Position numbers and translations under genes: made by a program
Shown: piece after piece, positions 2,991-54,057 of the stretch
How the letters are laid out: each line of letters opens with the position of its first letter
Numbering within the stretch: the stretch's first letter is position 1
Sequence record: MK373778.1
Source of the DNA: Escherichia phage vB_EcoM_WFbE185
Direction: 5' to 3' (one strand)
Length of the DNA: 64,000 bases
Notes under the pieces: model-generated
Databases searched by the model: none
What the model saw: only the letters and a program-made list of their open reading frames with translations
Told to the model about the DNA's origin: nothing

Positions 2991-3676
2991 TACCAGCCTT
3001 CCATAGGGAATTCCAGATAAACTTGAGCATTGACACGAATTTCATTGGTAATCTTTTTAACTCGGTCTGTATTACGAGATACACGTCCGAACCAACGCCA
3101 TCCGTTACTAATTGCACGAGAACCAGTGTGCCATGTTTGCCAATCAAACTGAAGAAGAGTACGATCTGGAGCTTCCCATTTCTCTAGTTCACCTTTTTCA
3201 ATTTTTTCGAGGACTTCTTTGTGCCACTGGCGATAGATAAGTTCGCCATCAGGAATCTGACTGAACTCTGCAGTTCCTGTTGCAAAATGAGTAGGACACA
3301 CGTCAGCGTTAACAAGACCAAGAATGTGTTCAGACAAATAGCGAGGATTGTCATAATCAGGTTGTCCTGCAGTAATAAAGTGTTGACCTACCGGAATATC
3401 CGGGCGTGGTACATCGTCATGGTGATAACCTGGGATAGCAGGGTACCAACCAGGCATCAGCATGTGGACTCGTGAATCAAATACAACCTGATCGGTGTTC
3501 CAATCATCTGGCAAGTTCATGATGAAGCTGCGAGTAATAGGACCGCCGTTATTATAAGCAAATTCTAAACTACAGTTGAAGAACATAGGCTCGTTTTTAA
3601 TCTGCTCGTTTTTAATCGCATGAGCAAAACCACCTACTGCACGAGCTTGACTATTAAACACTTTAGAACTATTCAT
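2990..3676 (-). CDS. hypothetical protein
   Basis: ORF track 228 aa; ATG preceded by GAGGA. Confidence 0.7.
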   Translation of the reverse strand: MNSSKVFNSQARAVGGFAHAIKNEQIKNEPMFFNCSLEFAYNNGGPITRSFIMNLPDDWNTDQVVFDSRVHMLMPGWYPAIPGYHHDDVPRPDIPVGQHFITAGQPDYDNPRYLSEHILGLVNADVCPTHFATGTAEFSQIPDGELIYRQWHKEVLEKIEKGELEKWEAPDRTLLQFDWQTWHTGSRAISNGWRWFGRVSRNTDRVKKITNEIRVNAQVYLEFPMEGW

Positions 3677-3677
3677 A

Positions 3678-3983
3678 TTATTTTCCTCGACATTCTTTAA
3701 TGAAATTTTCTAGATTGGTAGATTCAATAGCTTTTTTACGAGCTTCTGCGTGTTCTTCTTCAGACAATTTACGTTTATAATTGACCCAGACATTATGGTC
3801 TAAACCGGTCGTGGCATATAATATCAAAGCTCCGACGAATAATAAAAACGGTGATAAAAATATACAACCAGGAACACCATCCATACTGTAAGCCTTTTGT
3901 AATACTGCAACAGAAAGAGCTGCGTAAAAAAGTGATGCAAATATTGTAAAAAGACCAATTCGGTTGGTTTCGCCTAATTTCAT
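3678..3983 (-). CDS. hypothetical small membrane protein, C-terminal FIKECR
   Basis: ORF track 101 aa; two hydrophobic helices; own early promoter. Confidence 0.7.
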   Translation of the reverse strand: MKLGETNRIGLFTIFASLFYAALSVAVLQKAYSMDGVPGCIFLSPFLLFVGALILYATTGLDHNVWVNYKRKLSEEEHAEARKKAIESTNLENFIKECRGK

Positions 3984-4011
3984 AATATTCTCCTCATGTT
4001 TTAATAGGACT

Positions 4012-4041
4012 ACTATAACATAGCCCTATAATTGTGTAAAC
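4012..4041 (-). promoter_or_regulatory. early promoter cassette (-35 GTTTAC, -10 TATAGT inside ataggact/agtcctat palindrome)
   Basis: minus GTTTACacaattatagggctatgtTATAGT, leader with GAGGAG before ATG 3983. Confidence 0.55.
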
Positions 4042-4053
4042 AGTTTTGTGAAG

Positions 4054-5010
4054 TTATTTGAAAGGTTTTACCATATGGAAATTTTGTTTGAAACGTTTTA
4101 CGTAATCGTCATGTCCTAAGCTTTGGTACATACTTACAACTTTGCTGTAGTTTTCCCAGGCGTATTCACGGAACCAACCGGAGGTGATGCTTGTGCAGAC
4201 TTTTTCTAATGCCATCATGAAACTGGCTTCAGGGTTAATTTTAAAGTCATTAGGAATCTGAGAACGTTCTAATGCTAGTACACATGATTCTTCATATACA
4301 CCGGCCAATTTGACCATTTCTGGTAACGATTCGAACTTCTCGCGTGAGGTCATGACTTCAGAACCGTCTTTCATATAAAATGTATACGCTGGGCGGTCTG
4401 TTAGCGCAATGGCTTCGTGAATAGTGTCATGGTCATATGTATAGATGTCATCTTTAAAGAACGCACTTTTAGAAGTGTCAAGAACTGGGTGAGCATAGTT
4501 CAAGGTTTCTTTCTGGCGTTTCAGCATAATTTCAGTAAGTTCATCGTTCAGTGTAACACCTTTACCACGAAGATACTGAATATGGTTCATAGTCTTTAAA
4601 AAGAATGGATTATTTTTCTTGAAACGATGAGACATCTTAATTGCAAGGCACATCTCAGGAGTCGCCCAGTAAAACCCGTTCAAACGGTCTTTAGACAAAT
4701 TTTTCTTGGCGTATTTTAAAAGGTCATAAGAAGACGTGAAATCTTCAGGAGTGAGTTCACCTACTAATTCACGGACATTAGTGATTGCCGGAACAATATA
4801 TGCTTCAAAATGAGTTTCGCGTCCATTATGGAAGCATTTGAAAACTTGGACATCAGGGTTATCTTGGTGAACATATACACCCATCATTTGATTTTTGAAT
4901 GCATTCCAAGAACATTGGTCCGCAATAAAGTCCCAATCACTATTTTTGATAGCGCTAGAATCAATAAGACCGTGATAGTGAAGTGCACGAGAACCAATAA
5001 CTAACATCAT
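4054..5010 (-). CDS. hypothetical protein, possible nucleotidyltransferase fold
   Basis: ORF track 318 aa; N-terminal IGSRALHYHGL...SDWDFIAD resembles GS...DxD of Pol-beta-type NTases (weak). Confidence 0.7.
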   Translation of the reverse strand: MMLVIGSRALHYHGLIDSSAIKNSDWDFIADQCSWNAFKNQMMGVYVHQDNPDVQVFKCFHNGRETHFEAYIVPAITNVRELVGELTPEDFTSSYDLLKYAKKNLSKDRLNGFYWATPEMCLAIKMSHRFKKNNPFFLKTMNHIQYLRGKGVTLNDELTEIMLKRQKETLNYAHPVLDTSKSAFFKDDIYTYDHDTIHEAIALTDRPAYTFYMKDGSEVMTSREKFESLPEMVKLAGVYEESCVLALERSQIPNDFKINPEASFMMALEKVCTSITSGWFREYAWENYSKVVSMYQSLGHDDYVKRFKQNFHMVKPFK

Positions 5011-50215: not shown

Positions 50216-50223
50216 TATAAATA
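50216..50223 (+). promoter_or_regulatory. late promoter TATAAATA for uvsW
   Basis: exact octamer 30 nt upstream of uvsW ATG. Confidence 0.65.
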
Positions 50224-50252: not shown

Positions 50253-51767
50253 ATGACTGACATTAAAGTACATTTTCATGATTTTAGTCACGTGCGCATT
50301 GAATGCGACGAAAGTACGTTTTACGAACTTCGTGACTTTTTTAGCTTTGAAGCTGACGGGTATAAATTTAACCCAAAATATCGCTATGGGCAATGGGATG
50401 GTAGAATTCGACTTTTAGATTACAATCGTTTGTTACCATATGGACTTGTAGGACAAATAAAAAAGTTCTGTAACAATATGAGTTATTCTGTATGGATTGA
50501 CCATAAAATCTTTGAGACCGAAGACCTTACCAGGGAAGATTTTGACGCATGGCTTTCTAAACAAGAAATTTATTCAGGCAACGCCAAAATCGAACCGCAT
50601 TGGTATCAAAAAGATGCAGTATATGAAGGACTAGTTAATCGTCGTCGAATTTTAAACCTTCCGACATCAGCAGGTAAATCACTAATCCAAGCACTTTTAG
50701 CTCGGTATTATCTAGAGAACTATGAAGGTAAAATTCTCATTATCGTCCCTACAACAGCATTGACAACCCAGATGGCTAATGATTTTGTTGATTATCGCTT
50801 GTTTAGTCATTCGATGATTAAGAAAATTGGCGGTGGCGCTGATAAAGCGGACAAATCTAAAAATGACGCTCCAATTATTGTTGGCACATGGCAAACTGTA
50901 GTTAAGCAGCCTAAAGAATGGTTCTCTCAGTTCGGTATGATGATGAATGATGAATGCCACTTAGCAACAGGCAAAAGTATTTCTTCAATCATCTCAGGAT
51001 TAAATAATTGCATGTTTAAATTCGGTTTATCTGGCTCATTAAGAGACGGAAAAGCCAATGTAATGCAGTACGTAGGTATGTTCGGTGAAATCTTCCGTCC
51101 TGTTAGCACGTCTAAATTAATGGAAGATGGACAGGTAACTGAGCTTAAGATTAATAGTATTTTCCTTCGTTATCCGGACGAATTCACCACCAAATTAAAA
51201 GGTAAAACATACCAAGAAGAAGTTAAAATTATTACCGGACTAAAACGTCGTACAAAGTGGATTGCTCAACTTTCAGTAAAATTGGCTAAGAAAGACGAGA
51301 ACGCCTTTGTAATGTTTAAACACGTTACACACGGTAAAGAAATATTTGAAGCTATTAAAGAGCTTGGATACGAAAAAGTTTATTACGTATCAGGTGAAGT
51401 TGATACTGAAACACGTAACGCGCTTAAAGTCATGGCAGAAAATGGTAAAGGCATTATTATTGTTGCATCATATGGAGTATTCTCTACTGGTATTTCAGTC
51501 AAGAATCTTCATCATGTTATTTTTGCCCATGGTGTTAAATCAAAAATTATCGTACTTCAAACCGTAGGTCGCGTGCTTCGTAAGCATGGTTCTAAAGCTG
51601 TTGCTACAGTTTGGGATCTCATCGACGATGCAGGTGTAAAACCTAAATCATTAAATACTAAAAAGAAGTATACTCATCTTAATTACTTGTTAAAACACGG
51701 TATTGATCGTATCCAACGTTACGCTGATGAGAAATTTAACTATGTAATGAAAACAATTAATTTATAA
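50253..51767 (+). CDS. uvsW: UvsW DNA/RNA helicase (SF2)
   Basis: 504 aa; Walker A PTSAGKS, DECH box; near-identical to T4 UvsW. Confidence 0.97.
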   Translation: MTDIKVHFHDFSHVRIECDESTFYELRDFFSFEADGYKFNPKYRYGQWDGRIRLLDYNRLLPYGLVGQIKKFCNNMSYSVWIDHKIFETEDLTREDFDAWLSKQEIYSGNAKIEPHWYQKDAVYEGLVNRRRILNLPTSAGKSLIQALLARYYLENYEGKILIIVPTTALTTQMANDFVDYRLFSHSMIKKIGGGADKADKSKNDAPIIVGTWQTVVKQPKEWFSQFGMMMNDECHLATGKSISSIISGLNNCMFKFGLSGSLRDGKANVMQYVGMFGEIFRPVSTSKLMEDGQVTELKINSIFLRYPDEFTTKLKGKTYQEEVKIITGLKRRTKWIAQLSVKLAKKDENAFVMFKHVTHGKEIFEAIKELGYEKVYYVSGEVDTETRNALKVMAENGKGIIIVASYGVFSTGISVKNLHHVIFAHGVKSKIIVLQTVGRVLRKHGSKAVATVWDLIDDAGVKPKSLNTKKKYTHLNYLLKHGIDRIQRYADEKFNYVMKTINL

Positions 51768-51792
51768 GGGCTTCGGCCCTTAGGAGATAAAA

Positions 51793-52026
51793 ATGGTACT
51801 TGAATTTAAACAATTTTTATACGAAGCATCTATTGACGAATTCATGGGTAAAATTGCTAGTTGTCATACCTTAGAAGGGCTTGAAGAATTGGAAGCTTAT
51901 TATAAGAAACGTATAAAAGAAACGGAATTAAAAGATACAGATGATATTTCTGTCAGGGATGCCTTAGCAGGTAAGCGTGCCGAACTTGAAGGCGACGATG
52001 ATGAGGATGTGGAAGAAGACTTCTAA
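51793..52026 (+). CDS. uvsW.1: UvsW.1 acidic C-terminal protein
   Basis: 77 aa, synteny. Confidence 0.85.
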   Translation: MVLEFKQFLYEASIDEFMGKIASCHTLEGLEELEAYYKKRIKETELKDTDDISVRDALAGKRAELEGDDDEDVEEDF

Positions 52027-52029
52027 TTA

Positions 52030-52062
52030 AAAAAAGGCCCGACCTTTTTGGAAGGGCCAAAA
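52030..52062 (-). terminator. terminator-like hairpin, mainly for minus strand
   Basis: ggccc...gggcc stem flanked by A-run on plus and T-run on minus. Confidence 0.45.
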
Positions 52063-52084
52063 ACCATAGGCAAAAAAGGTAACA

Positions 52085-52252
52085 CTATAGTAAAAGTTGG
52101 GTTTCATTCAATTGCTCTTCTGAACTTTCTGAAACCGGCAATTGTTGGACATAGTTATAACAAGGACCAGGGTGTGCTGGGCCTTTGTCTGTTTCAACAA
52201 CCAATGCAGAATCGATTGGAGTTTTACAGACAACACAAATCTTATCTGACAT
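52085..52252 (-). CDS. small Cys-containing protein (55 aa), position of T4 uvsY.-2; not in ORF track
   Basis: hand translation MSDKICVVCKTPIDSALVVETDKGPAHPGPCYNYVQQLPVSESSEEQLNETQLLL; CxxC...C pattern. Confidence 0.5.
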   Translation of the reverse strand: MSDKICVVCKTPIDSALVVETDKGPAHPGPCYNYVQQLPVSESSEEQLNETQLLL

Positions 52253-52284
52253 GATTGCCTCCTAAGTTGAAATTACATATCTAT

Positions 52285-52509
52285 TTATACAACTCTCATA
52301 TGCATATCAATGCCCATATCTTTAGAATAAAAATATTCATCAAGATATCCGGCAAACTTCCCTTTAATATAAAGGACGTCTTCGCCACAAGGATGGTCTG
52401 CCAGGATACGAATATCCTGACGACGTAGACGATACTTTTCCATTAAGAATTTAATTTCAGTTTCAAATTCTTCATCATTATTAAAGGCATCTTCAATTGA
52501 ATAACGCAT
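52285..52509 (-). CDS. hypothetical protein (position of T4 uvsY.-1)
   Basis: ORF track 74 aa; ATGA overlap with uvsY stop. Confidence 0.7.
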   Translation of the reverse strand: MRYSIEDAFNNDEEFETEIKFLMEKYRLRRQDIRILADHPCGEDVLYIKGKFAGYLDEYFYSKDMGIDMHMRVV

Positions 52510-52922
52510 TATTGCCCCGCTTCAAATTCTCGCATATCCTGGATATGTTTAAGTGCAAAACTACGAGATTTAACTGCGTCAAGTGCACCACTACAGAACT
52601 CAAGTAAAATTCCCCAGTATTGTAAAGTAGTCTCTATTTTAAGCACATCTTTATCTGCAGCCAGGACAGTTTTCATTTCAGATTTCTCGTATCGGTCCAT
52701 ACTGAATTCATCACCGTCACCTCGTCCTGAGTAGTAGTCTAATCTTGCTTTTAGAGCAGTTTTCTTCTGAGTCTCTATACGCAACATTTCTTTACGAATA
52801 AATGAGTGCTTACGTAGCCATTTGCTGTATAACTTAACATTATTCGCTGTCTCATATTGCAACTTTGTCGTATCAATAGCTAAGTCTGCGTCTAACTCTT
52901 CCTGTAAATCTTCCAGCTTCAT
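52509..52922 (-). CDS. uvsY: UvsY recombination mediator
   Basis: starts at MKLEDLQEEL; about 138 aa; near-identical to T4 UvsY. Confidence 0.95.
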   Translation of the reverse strand: MKLEDLQEELDADLAIDTTKLQYETANNVKLYSKWLRKHSFIRKEMLRIETQKKTALKARLDYYSGRGDGDEFSMDRYEKSEMKTVLAADKDVLKIETTLQYWGILLEFCSGALDAVKSRSFALKHIQDMREFEAGQ

Positions 52923-52977
52923 AATATTCTCTCTTTTAACTAATAATCTCCCGGCTGTATCGGAAGGACCTAAAACC

Positions 52978-53002
52978 ATTATACATAGGTTGTCTTGAAG
53001 CA
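52978..53002 (-). promoter_or_regulatory. middle (MotA-dependent) promoter for uvsY
   Basis: minus-strand aaTGCTTca, 12 nt, TATAAT. Confidence 0.6.
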
Positions 53003-53401
53003 TTACACTCTATTGCTTGATGCTAACTGAAGTTTGATTTGTTCGATATCATCAGGGTTATCTACGACCGAAAATCTAATCTCTACTATAACTGTATAGT
53101 CATCATATACTGGCGTTACACTTACAGAAAGTTTGTCGATGCGCGGCTCATAGTTACGGACGGCTGCCTGGATATTACGCTCAATCGTATCGGCTGTAAG
53201 TGGTGTCATGTTCTCGAAAAGTTCATCAACCAAATCGCATCCAAATTCAGGGTCGAAGGGGCGTGAGCCTTTTCTAGTTGTCACTATGCCAAGAAGACTA
53301 TTTTTAATAGAACGAAGTCCTACAGAACGAGCAACGTCCTTGTTCCAATCCATACGCATTTCTGGATCGATATCTGAATAAAGTTTATTGATATTAGACA
53401 T
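53003..53401 (-). CDS. 25: gp25 baseplate wedge protein
   Basis: 132 aa near-identical to T4 gp25. Confidence 0.97.
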   Translation of the reverse strand: MSNINKLYSDIDPEMRMDWNKDVARSVGLRSIKNSLLGIVTTRKGSRPFDPEFGCDLVDELFENMTPLTADTIERNIQAAVRNYEPRIDKLSVSVTPVYDDYTVIVEIRFSVVDNPDDIEQIKLQLASSNRV

Positions 53402-54027
53402 TATAGTAACTCAAAGAATTCTTTGAGGCCTCGTATTGTGTGAACGTGTGATGCCCCACATTTGGGACATTTAATAGGGGTTGCCAGATAAATTGATGGC
53501 GATACCAAAAGATTTTTAATATTGATCATGTCATCTTCTGTTATAAGGCCGTAAAGGTCGTTTATTTCTGCTTCAGTTAAATCTTCAACAGGGATGGACT
53601 CTCCATTGACAAAAACGGCCTCAATACATGAAGCAATCATTAATGCGATATTTTTATCGTCAAATAATTTAGGTTGACGGAACTTAATTTTAATACCACT
53701 GAACGAATACCAGGGATCGGCCTGTTCATCTAATTGAGTGTGCAATAAATTCATATAGACTTGAAATGAATGCCCACAGGAACAATTCCAGGTGTGTTCT
53801 TGATTCACTTCACCTAATGAATGTGCCCACAGATTTACCAACAATAACTCGGCTTCTTGTTTAGTCAAGTTTTTAGCATTAGAGCAATTAGTGATAATAT
53901 TGTTCACTGCGGATTCAATAGTATCGGTAGCCCGCGCACCTATGAGTCCTAAATATTCTTTTAAAGTAAAGGCTCTACAATTCACTTCTTTATCGCCTAA
54001 ACGTACGGTAAACGTATATTTGTACAT
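53401..54027 (-). CDS. 26: gp26 baseplate hub protein
   Basis: 208 aa, synteny. Confidence 0.9.
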   Translation of the reverse strand: MYKYTFTVRLGDKEVNCRAFTLKEYLGLIGARATDTIESAVNNIITNCSNAKNLTKQEAELLLVNLWAHSLGEVNQEHTWNCSCGHSFQVYMNLLHTQLDEQADPWYSFSGIKIKFRQPKLFDDKNIALMIASCIEAVFVNGESIPVEDLTEAEINDLYGLITEDDMINIKNLLVSPSIYLATPIKCPKCGASHVHTIRGLKEFFELL

Positions 54028-54045: not shown

Positions 54046-54053
54046 TATTTATA
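54046..54053 (-). promoter_or_regulatory. late promoter TATAAATA (minus) for genes 26-25
   Basis: TATTTATA on plus strand, overlapping the plus-strand octamer. Confidence 0.6.
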
Positions 54054-54057
54054 AATA
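54050..54057 (+). promoter_or_regulatory. late promoter TATAAATA for gene 51
   Basis: exact octamer 18 nt upstream of ATG. Confidence 0.6.

Follow-up and report, generated by a model that had tools for sequence, protein, structure and literature searches.

The window, a stretch of 64,000 nucleotides from Escherichia phage vB_EcoM_WFbE185 (MK373778.1), includes the region between the recombination genes uvsY and uvsW. Around the small open reading frame (ORF) that is the subject here, a 1-kb stretch shows 99.2% identity to Escherichia phage ChristianSchoenbein and to other Mosigvirus genomes, and the same stretch is matched by 689 phage records. Judged by its sequence, which is 99% identical to that of ChristianSchoenbein, the window comes from a T4-like Mosigvirus (Straboviridae, Tevenvirinae). 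The ORFs at the locus are arranged as follows.

50253-51767, plus strand: uvsW.
51793-52026, plus strand: uvsW.1, the convergent neighbour, 77 aa (PF11637, E 1.6e-26).
52048-52254, plus strand: spurious antisense ORF, 68 aa, with a TTG start.
52085-52252, minus strand: coding sequence of uvsY.-2, 55 codons and a TAG stop (Pfam DUF2685; almost certain ortholog of T4 uvsY.-2).
52285-52509, minus strand: uvsY.-1, the upstream neighbour, 74 aa (PHROG 1541).
52509-52922, minus strand: uvsY, the recombination mediator, with the start that gives 137 aa chosen; the frame is open to 53003.
53003-53401, minus strand: gene 25.
53401-54027, minus strand: gene 26.

In this arrangement, the uvsY unit of the minus strand ends with uvsY.-2. 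What lies between uvsY and uvsY.-2 is variable: T4 and Mosigvirus have uvsY.-1 there, and several genera have no gene; uvsY.-1 itself is found in some genera only. As for the start of uvsY, the Pfam UvsY match begins at residue 36 of the 164-aa ORF, and both versions of the start occur in annotations of relatives.

The minus-strand ORF at 52085-52252 begins with ATG and encodes 55 aa, MSDKICVVCKTPIDSALVVETDKGPAHPGPCYNYVQQLPVSESSEEQLNETQLLL, with cysteines at positions 6, 9 and 31 (C6, C9 and C31) and a histidine at position 27 (H27). The sequence and its CxxC...C arrangement are exactly those given in the preliminary description, where H27 went unmentioned. The plus-strand ORF at 52048-52254, which starts with TTG and would encode 68 aa, overlaps it fully. 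As had been pointed out, uvsY.-2 is missing from the ORF track, its 55 aa being below the default minimum of 60 aa of the ORF tool, and this cutoff is probably the reason for the omission. A 60-aa cutoff can hide real small genes in this way, with a longer antisense ORF standing in for them. By length alone, the 55-aa ORF is within chance expectation; ORFs of at least 55 aa number 194 in the window and 78-96 in mononucleotide shuffles. We count it as real on account of its homology to Pfam DUF2685, its tblastn matches in 1250 phage records (compared with 1378 for uvsY) and the purifying selection that acts specifically on its frame.

To compare the frames, homologous DNA was gathered from 34 loci in IMG/VR contigs and GenBank phages, and all six frames were examined on a codon alignment of the 22 sequences that align gap-free. 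The minus frame has a pN/pS of 0.17 and is free of stops in all 22 relatives, and its variable sites at codon positions 1, 2 and 3 number 29, 18 and 51 of 55, respectively. In the frame of the plus-strand ORF, pN/pS is 2.4 and stops are present in 17 of the 22 relatives, T4 among them; codon position 2 of this frame is the wobble position of uvsY.-2. Considering all five frames other than that of uvsY.-2, pN/pS lies between 0.36 and 2.4 and the frames are interrupted in 17-22 of the 22 sequences. Searches with the plus-strand ORF gave no match in Pfam and a best E value of 0.22 in PHROGs, which is not significant. The reading in which this ORF is the real gene, or in which the region is non-coding, could draw on its greater length (68 versus 55 aa) and on its entry in the ORF track, but it has virtually no probability left and is refuted by the six-frame conservation comparison, since the frame is broken and unconstrained as described, the ORF starts with TTG, lacks a significant family match and is never annotated among the relatives inspected, while the opposite frame is under strong purifying selection and its T4 product appears in proteomics tables. 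Thus, the minus-strand ORF of 55 codons is a genuine protein-coding gene, and the one opposite it on the plus strand is spurious, as the preliminary description had suspected. Conservation of both frames was the check that it had set beforehand, and the outcome favours the minus strand, the opposite of a refuting result.

The encoded protein matches Pfam PF10886 (DUF2685) with 109.4 bits (cutoff 25 bits; E 1e-31), residues 3-55 aligning with positions 1-55 of the 55 model positions, and it matches PHROG 1043 ('unknown function') with an E value of 7.5e-30. T4 UvsY.-2 (UniProt Q00778) is likewise a protein of 55 aa, its gene stands in identical order and orientation, and 51 of the 55 residues (92.7%) are identical to those of the window protein. 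The T4 gene also shares the spacing between Shine-Dalgarno sequence and ATG, the upstream TATAAATA box and the design of the terminator. The only differences are four substitutions (A26V, V35I, Q36K and Q37E in T4), and nothing in them suggests, at the level of sequence, a functional difference between the T4 and Mosigvirus proteins. In the published T4 gene table, uvsY.-2 is listed with 168 nt and PHROG 1043 between uvsW and uvsY.-1 (PMC11879866). The ORF had earlier been called the positional equivalent of T4 uvsY.-2, which was too modest a claim, as the degree of identity and the shared gene arrangement make it almost certainly the Mosigvirus ortholog of that gene.

The gene is not a new ORF but is already known from Pfam, PHROGs and most GenBank records of T4-like phages, so that for genome annotation the finding matters little. 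Relatives annotate it as a CDS under the names uvsY.-2 (Bp7) and DUF2685 domain-containing protein (SCS57), and a further record calls it 'uncharacterized 6.1 kDa protein in uvsW-uvsY intergenic region'. An identical protein is encoded in many Mosigvirus genomes, and T4-type phages carry the version with 92.7% identity. A literature search on 'DUF2685' returned no papers, and one on the accession NP_049797 returned nothing relevant. Searches of PADLOC and NCBIfam with UvsY.-2 were without match, and in Rfam the best score for the region 51500-52800 was 18 bits against a threshold of 50.

The hosts of the phages that carry uvsY.-2 are all Proteobacteria, nearly all of them Gammaproteobacteria. 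An exhaustive search of 1.84 billion representative proteins with the family profile returned only 66 clusters at 50% identity, and the members are nearly all 50-66 aa in length; three long or repetitive matches in this search (P0051, P0076 and P0088) look spurious and were set aside. Tequatrovirus, Mosigvirus, Dhakavirus, Jiaodavirus, Krischvirus, Biquartavirus and a Serratia phage all have the order uvsY...uvsY.-2 followed by convergent uvsW.1 and uvsW. In a Vibrio phage, uvsY, uvsY.-2 and a convergent uvsW are accompanied by additional small genes, and no uvsW.1 is annotated; in Acinetobacter phage Morttis uvsY.-2 is not adjacent to uvsY. Among Straboviridae genera that are distant from one another and infect very different hosts, the gene is near-core. 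In Bragavirus, an unrelated extension of 72 residues is fused in frame to the N-terminus, which gives a version of 126 aa. We considered this extension as a fused UvsY.-1, which would have been a Rosetta-stone clue, and rejected it because BLASTP found no similarity between the two and the extension matches only a PHROG of its own, 26998.

Around the coding sequence, three signals can be recognized.

52258-52263, minus strand: Shine-Dalgarno sequence AGGAGG, 5 nt before the ATG.
52282-52289, minus strand: putative late promoter TATAAATA, identical to the consensus of T4 late promoters and located 30 nt before the ATG of uvsY.-2.
52029-52058, minus strand: intrinsic terminator of the uvsY-to-uvsY.-2 unit, a GGCCC/GGGCC stem followed by U7.

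The ribosome-binding site, a strong one, is kept as AGGAG(G/A)CAATCATG in nearly all relatives. The TATAAATA box overlaps the stop codon of uvsY.-1, and in relatives the box, exact or with one mismatch, followed by GATATGTAA, is kept whatever the upstream gene is. The window contains 19 copies of TATAAATA, where 8.6 +/- 2.6 are expected and none of 100 shuffles reaches 19. Other copies precede late genes, such as those at 54046/54050 in the interval from gene 26 to gene 51, and one is located at 50216-50223, just upstream of uvsW. Based on the consensus match and this conservation, we infer that the box at 52282-52289 on the minus strand acts as the late promoter of uvsY.-2. A sigma-70-like site inside uvsY.-2 (52111..52084, minus strand) was also considered and rejected as being at chance level, as three such sites were found and five are expected.

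The terminator that the preliminary description had placed after uvsY.-2 was borne out as a conserved hairpin. It is located between the convergent genes uvsY.-2 and uvsW.1, 26 nt past the uvsY.-2 stop codon, with the stem arms GGCCC at 52058-52054 and GGGCC at 52040-52036 followed by seven U at 52035-52029. The fold consists of a 5-bp stem and two inner pairs, and the 81-nt segment has a folding energy of -19.4 kcal/mol (z = -2.1). Among relatives, GGCCC/GGGCC exchanges with GCCCC/GGGGC in a compensatory manner, and distant phages use other G+C stems. In the plus-strand reading, A's and not U's come after this hairpin. The hairpin at 52029-52058 escaped a simple terminator scan, probably because its 13-nt loop exceeds the 8-nt limit of that scan. 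In T4, a terminator is documented after uvsY.-2 (PMC5931544).

Published T4 data bear on when the gene is expressed and on what it is worth to the phage. In the time-course omics tables, T4 UvsY.-2 (Q00778) is classed as 'middle-RNA, late-protein', and uvsY and uvsY.-1, which lie upstream of it, are classed as 'early RNA' (PMC9697503 supplement). The difference in RNA class fits an additional promoter before uvsY.-2. In a CRISPRi-ART screen of T4, uvsY.-2 was scored 'Semi-Fit', and uvsY, uvsY.-1 and uvsW were scored 'Not Fit' (PMC11879866). Knockdown of uvsY.-2 with a single guide lowered the titre at most 2-fold and roughly halved the plaque area, and according to the authors the defect was complemented (PMC11879866). 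That the protein is made and that its knockdown costs modest fitness has therefore been established by others for the T4 ortholog. With this measurable effect on T4 fitness (PMC11879866), uvsY.-2 is among very few near-core Straboviridae genes that are still without a function.

UvsY.-2 is a 6-kDa protein in which two parts can be told apart from conservation and from the AlphaFold2 model.

52139-52243, minus strand: predicted single treble-clef zinc finger, residues 4-38, based on conserved ligands and AlphaFold2.
52235-52237, 52226-52228, 52172-52174 and 52160-52162, minus strand: codons of the candidate ligands C6, C9, H27 and C31, respectively.
52088-52138, minus strand: acidic tail predicted to be disordered, residues 39-55 (pLDDT 58-69).

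To determine which residues are conserved, we constructed a family alignment of 61 representatives, whose identity to the window protein ranges from 31 to 78%. C6, C9, C31 and E42 are invariant in this alignment, and K10, G24, H27 and G29 are conserved in at least 90% of the 61 members. The pattern CxxC-x15-22-H-x3-C is present in 58 of the 61 members, the spacing in the window protein being CxxC-x17-H-x3-C. The AlphaFold2 model calculated with the family alignment has a mean pLDDT of 80, with values of 83-90 for residues 1-40, and shows beta-hairpins at residues 4-5/12-13 and 19-26; a helix begins at residue 30, beside the last two ligands. Possible zinc binding, as raised in the preliminary description, appears plausible in view of the three invariant cysteines, the largely conserved H27 and the confident, treble-clef-like N-terminal domain, and from sequence and model we regard it as likely, with some room for doubt, that UvsY.-2 binds zinc. 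Residues 1-38 are predicted to form a Cys3-His finger of the treble-clef type.

Searches with this model gave weak matches to the same class of fold. LIM zinc fingers, with an rmsd of 1.7 Å over 29 residues, lead the fold matches in the PDB, and ribosomal eL24, GATA and PHD modules are also among the best. All of these are zinc modules, although none of the matches is significant and the best Foldseek E value is 0.41. Weak matches are expected for a domain of only 35 residues, and the fold class is thus unproven. Structure matches in BFVD are uncharacterised homologs only, and by sequence the single protein had no more than chance matches in the PDB. When the family profile was used, the C-terminal zinc finger of Vps39 (6ze9) was matched with an E value of 0.0016, and individual members have weak matches to zf-Vps39_C (11 of 61) and to archaeal DUF2175 (14 of 61). 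In the Vps39/Vam6 finger (6ze9, PF10367) and the first LIM finger, treble clefs of the Cys2-His-Cys type, some 17 residues separate the CxxC knuckle from a His...Cys pair at the start of a helix, an arrangement that is also predicted for UvsY.-2; both modules mediate protein-protein contacts. The likeness has its differences, as the spacing is H-x3-C in UvsY.-2 and H-x2-C in Vps39 and LIM, and the finger of UvsY.-2 stands alone whereas LIM has two. Considering that the window protein is below the Pfam thresholds of Vps39 and LIM and that the Foldseek E values exceed 0.4, the likeness is a resemblance of fold class, with homology not demonstrated.

The tail has AlphaFold2 pLDDT values of 58-69 over residues 41-55. 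In the window protein it holds two conserved motifs, PV-S-E-S, which contains the invariant E42, and a C-terminal L-N-E-T-Q-L-L-L. Across the 61 members, the tail consists of x-E-[SN] around E42, a variable acidic linker and then LxE[TV][QE]LL[LMI]-COOH, with a mean net charge of -3.9; the whole protein has a mean of -5.5 (range -9 to 0). The finger itself is about neutral, and there is no basic patch in the sequence. The domain runs to the very end of the protein in the aligned full-length members, including those with an N-terminal extension such as the 126-aa Bragavirus version. The one exception is a protein of 101 aa, whose extra C-terminal residues resemble read-through. The end position of the tail varies, many members stopping right after Q-L-L, and the tail is identical in T4 and Mosigvirus.

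What, then, could a small protein with these two parts do? The reading we prefer is that UvsY.-2 is a tail-docking adaptor on phage DNA-metabolism proteins, to which we assign about an even chance. UvsY.-2 would be a small, late-made protein-protein adaptor or competitor and not a nucleic-acid binder; the latter point is suggested by its strong negative charge, and the notion of a protein-docking module from the fold class together with the conserved, free C-terminal tail. The tail would dock onto one partner as a short linear motif, and the finger would either contact a second partner or merely present the tail. The target would most plausibly lie in the late DNA-replication, recombination or late-transcription machinery of the phage, a placement suggested by late synthesis, near-core conservation and the fixed site beside recombination genes. 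Adjacency by itself is weak functional evidence here, as T4-like genomes show general synteny. The small Escherichia coli protein YacG, a Cys4 zinc-finger inhibitor of gyrase, has an acidic, flexible C-terminal tail with which it binds this DNA-metabolism enzyme. It resembles UvsY.-2 in size and in layout, with a zinc module and an acidic tail, and serves as an analogy of mechanism only; none of the searches made here found sequence similarity between the two. The functional question is in this way narrowed to a testable form, that of a Cys3-His finger with a bipartite, conserved acidic tail that is made late and is probably protein-docking.

A different target would be the host. The acidic tail could mimic a host interaction tip, and UvsY.-2 could thereby inhibit or hijack host replication, repair or defence; the tips we considered were the QLxLF-type motif that binds the beta clamp and the acidic C-terminus of the SSB type. 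The conserved Q-L-L-hydrophobic end of the tail after acidic residues would suit such mimicry, as would the restriction to Proteobacteria and almost entirely to Gammaproteobacteria. The motif by which bacterial proteins bind the beta clamp is QL[SD]LF or QLxLxL, five or six residues long, with a hydrophobic or aromatic residue in the last position. As a candidate for this motif, the tail was rejected, for Q-L-L is followed by only 0-2 residues and in many members by none, so that the fifth, aromatic position is missing; moreover, the distance of the tail motif to the carboxylate is not fixed. The authors of the CRISPRi-ART screen place uvsY.-2 among genes that possibly point to inhibition of host defence (PMC11879866), but PADLOC gave no match, and a near-core gene at a fixed genome position is unusual for counter-defence. 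UvsY.-2 is also made late, and host take-over proteins are typically early. We therefore consider a host-directed function unlikely, and in particular a host-specific counter-defence role less likely than one in phage late DNA metabolism.

Equally unlikely in our estimate is a role for UvsY.-2 as a cofactor that specifically serves its neighbours in recombination-dependent replication. Its tail might, for example, cover the surface with which UvsY or gp32 binds ssDNA, much as the acidic C-terminus of gp32 does, or the protein might modulate the UvsW helicase. Gene order would fit such a role, as in the examined genera uvsY.-2 comes directly after uvsY and is convergent with uvsW.1 and uvsW, but the Acinetobacter phage Morttis, in which it is located away from uvsY, is an exception. 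The late-promoter box is common to uvsY.-2 and uvsW. The order of a Ser-rich, an acidic and a Leu-rich segment in the tail resembles the gp32 tip, ...SSSDDGDLDDLLAGL, yet this likeness is compositional, with no motif match. The T4 screen weighs against the cofactor role, since knockdown of uvsY, uvsY.-1 or uvsW was without fitness effect and that of uvsY.-2 was not (PMC11879866), which argues that UvsY.-2 is not simply a cofactor of these neighbours.

That the finger binds nucleic acid, as a regulator of transcription or translation or as a binder of DNA ends or structures, seems very improbable to us. GATA and eL24 are among the fold matches, some treble clefs of this kind bind nucleic acids, and K10 is nearly invariant; however, the family has an average net charge of -5.5, the finger is neutral and without a basic patch, and the closest matches, the Vps39 C-terminal finger and LIM, are protein-interaction modules. 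A role in virion assembly or structure, for example of the baseplate or head, is slightly less probable still, for although the late-promoter box, the late protein class and the nearby baseplate genes 25, 26 and 51 (25 and 26 just upstream on the same strand) would suit it, knockdown of a true assembly gene abolishes plating whereas that of uvsY.-2 costs at most 2-fold in titre, and neither structural evidence, nor the PHROG category, nor either of two papers in which uvsY.-2 is mentioned speaks for such a role.

Returning to the adaptor, one candidate partner that we follow as a lead only is the gp45 sliding clamp, which is encoded outside the window; that gp45 specifically is the partner is doubtful, and by analogy to other clamp ligands we give it a low probability. 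In the version we have in mind, which is held with as much reserve, UvsY.-2 would be a zinc-finger 'plug' produced late in infection, a ligand of gp45 or of another late replisome or recombination hub. Its C-terminus would compete with the tails of DNA polymerase, gp33 and gp55 for loaded clamps, and the plug would thereby tune how clamps are shared among replication, recombination-dependent restart and late transcription. Should the tail indeed bind gp45 or another hub, UvsY.-2 would be a new regulator in one of the best-studied replication systems.

Clamp ligands of the T4 family, namely gp33, gp55 and gp43, have hydrophobic-acidic C-termini on flexible linkers (PMC2988020), and a hydrophobic and acidic C-terminus on a flexible linker is also present in UvsY.-2. 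In the same genus, the tails read ...NTLDFLL in gp33, ...SLDFLYEDDN in gp55 and ...SLFDMFDF in gp43, and the tip of gp32 reads ...DGDLDDLLAGL; UvsY.-2 ends in ...EEQLNETQLLL. A C-terminal pattern of hydrophobic-[DEQ]-hydrophobic-[LIM]-hydrophobic, which was designed after both UvsY.-2 and gp33 had been seen and is thus post hoc, was compared with 640 ORFs in 144 kb and is shared only by UvsY.-2, gp33 and a single spurious ORF. The T-Q-L-L-L end of UvsY.-2 differs from the known ligands in having no (S/T)-L-D-F-L core, no aromatic residue and no L-D pair, with Q/E in place of D. Because the core sequence differs in this way, we do not class UvsY.-2 among the clamp ligands and use the likeness as a working analogy only. 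In addition, the UvsY.-2 tail does not covary with the clamp-binding tails across genera and is more conserved than they are. The gp43 tails differ between T4 and Mosigvirus, unlike that of UvsY.-2, and the UvsY.-2 tail is retained in vibriophages in which clamp binding by the gp33 tail is not evident from its sequence.

The product of uvsW.1 (51793-52026, plus strand) ends in an acidic run followed by a final Phe (...EGDDDEDVEEDF). This [DE]n-x-F-COOH ending is conserved in relatives, reading ...EVEESF in T4 and ...EEEEDF or ...EEEEEF in others, and is similar to the acidic interaction tips of the SSB type. UvsW.1 and UvsY.-2 are both small proteins whose acidic C-terminal tails are conserved, and they are arranged tail-to-tail in one locus. 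Between the stop codon of uvsY.-2 and its terminator, we also found a second, weaker hairpin at 52062-52086 on the minus strand. The AGCCA...TGGTT pairing is conserved in relatives at the position matching this hairpin, which may stabilize the mRNA or belong to a tandem terminator.

When the uvsY frame was analyzed (52509-53003, minus strand), a 164-aa product was possible from 53003, overlapping the stop codon of gene 25. Considering that the Pfam UvsY match begins at residue 36 and that T4 UvsY has 137 aa, we placed the start at 52922. The GenBank annotations of uvsY differ between relatives, with 495 nt in MZ501056 versus 414 nt in OM960734.

In Bragavirus-type phages, namely Proteus phage Pm5461 (homologous locus L038, 1501-1881), PM2, phiP4-3, and Shigella phage vB_SdyM_006, the uvsY.-2 homolog is 126 aa long. 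It carries a conserved, unrelated N-terminal extension of 72 residues (PHROG 26998) as an in-frame fusion, and the start of the extension overlaps the uvsY stop codon. An internal Met of this homolog (MNHICAVCKK) could be an alternative start. The only clear exception to the adjacency of uvsY and uvsY.-2 is Acinetobacter phage Morttis (homologous locus L031), where uvsY.-2 directly follows gene 25 with no uvsY between them (1417-2168), has its own TATAAATA box, the consensus of the T4 late promoter, and is separated from the uvsW side by five additional small ORFs.

A homing-endonuclease gene adjoins uvsW in Morttis (3370-4070), and in phage Bp7 one is inserted between uvsW and uvsW.1 (homologous locus L004, 1652-2434). 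The uvsW side, which adjoins the uvsY.-2 locus, is a recurrent site of homing-endonuclease insertion.

Within the window, 19 TATAAATA boxes were found against 8.6 expected, an enrichment of approximately 2-fold. Two of the boxes overlap on opposite strands at 54046-54057, between gene 26 on the minus strand and the next plus-strand gene, and judging by sequence the pair looks like back-to-back divergent late promoters. A further box at 50216-50223 lies 30 nt 5' of uvsW, consistent with the late synthesis of UvsW.

Finally, a database protein annotated as 'DUF2685 domain-containing protein, partial [Enterococcus faecalis]' (P0003) shares 91% identity with the uvsY.-2 protein of the window. Rather than a genuine Enterococcus gene, this entry most likely represents contamination of a bacterial assembly with DNA from a T4-like phage.
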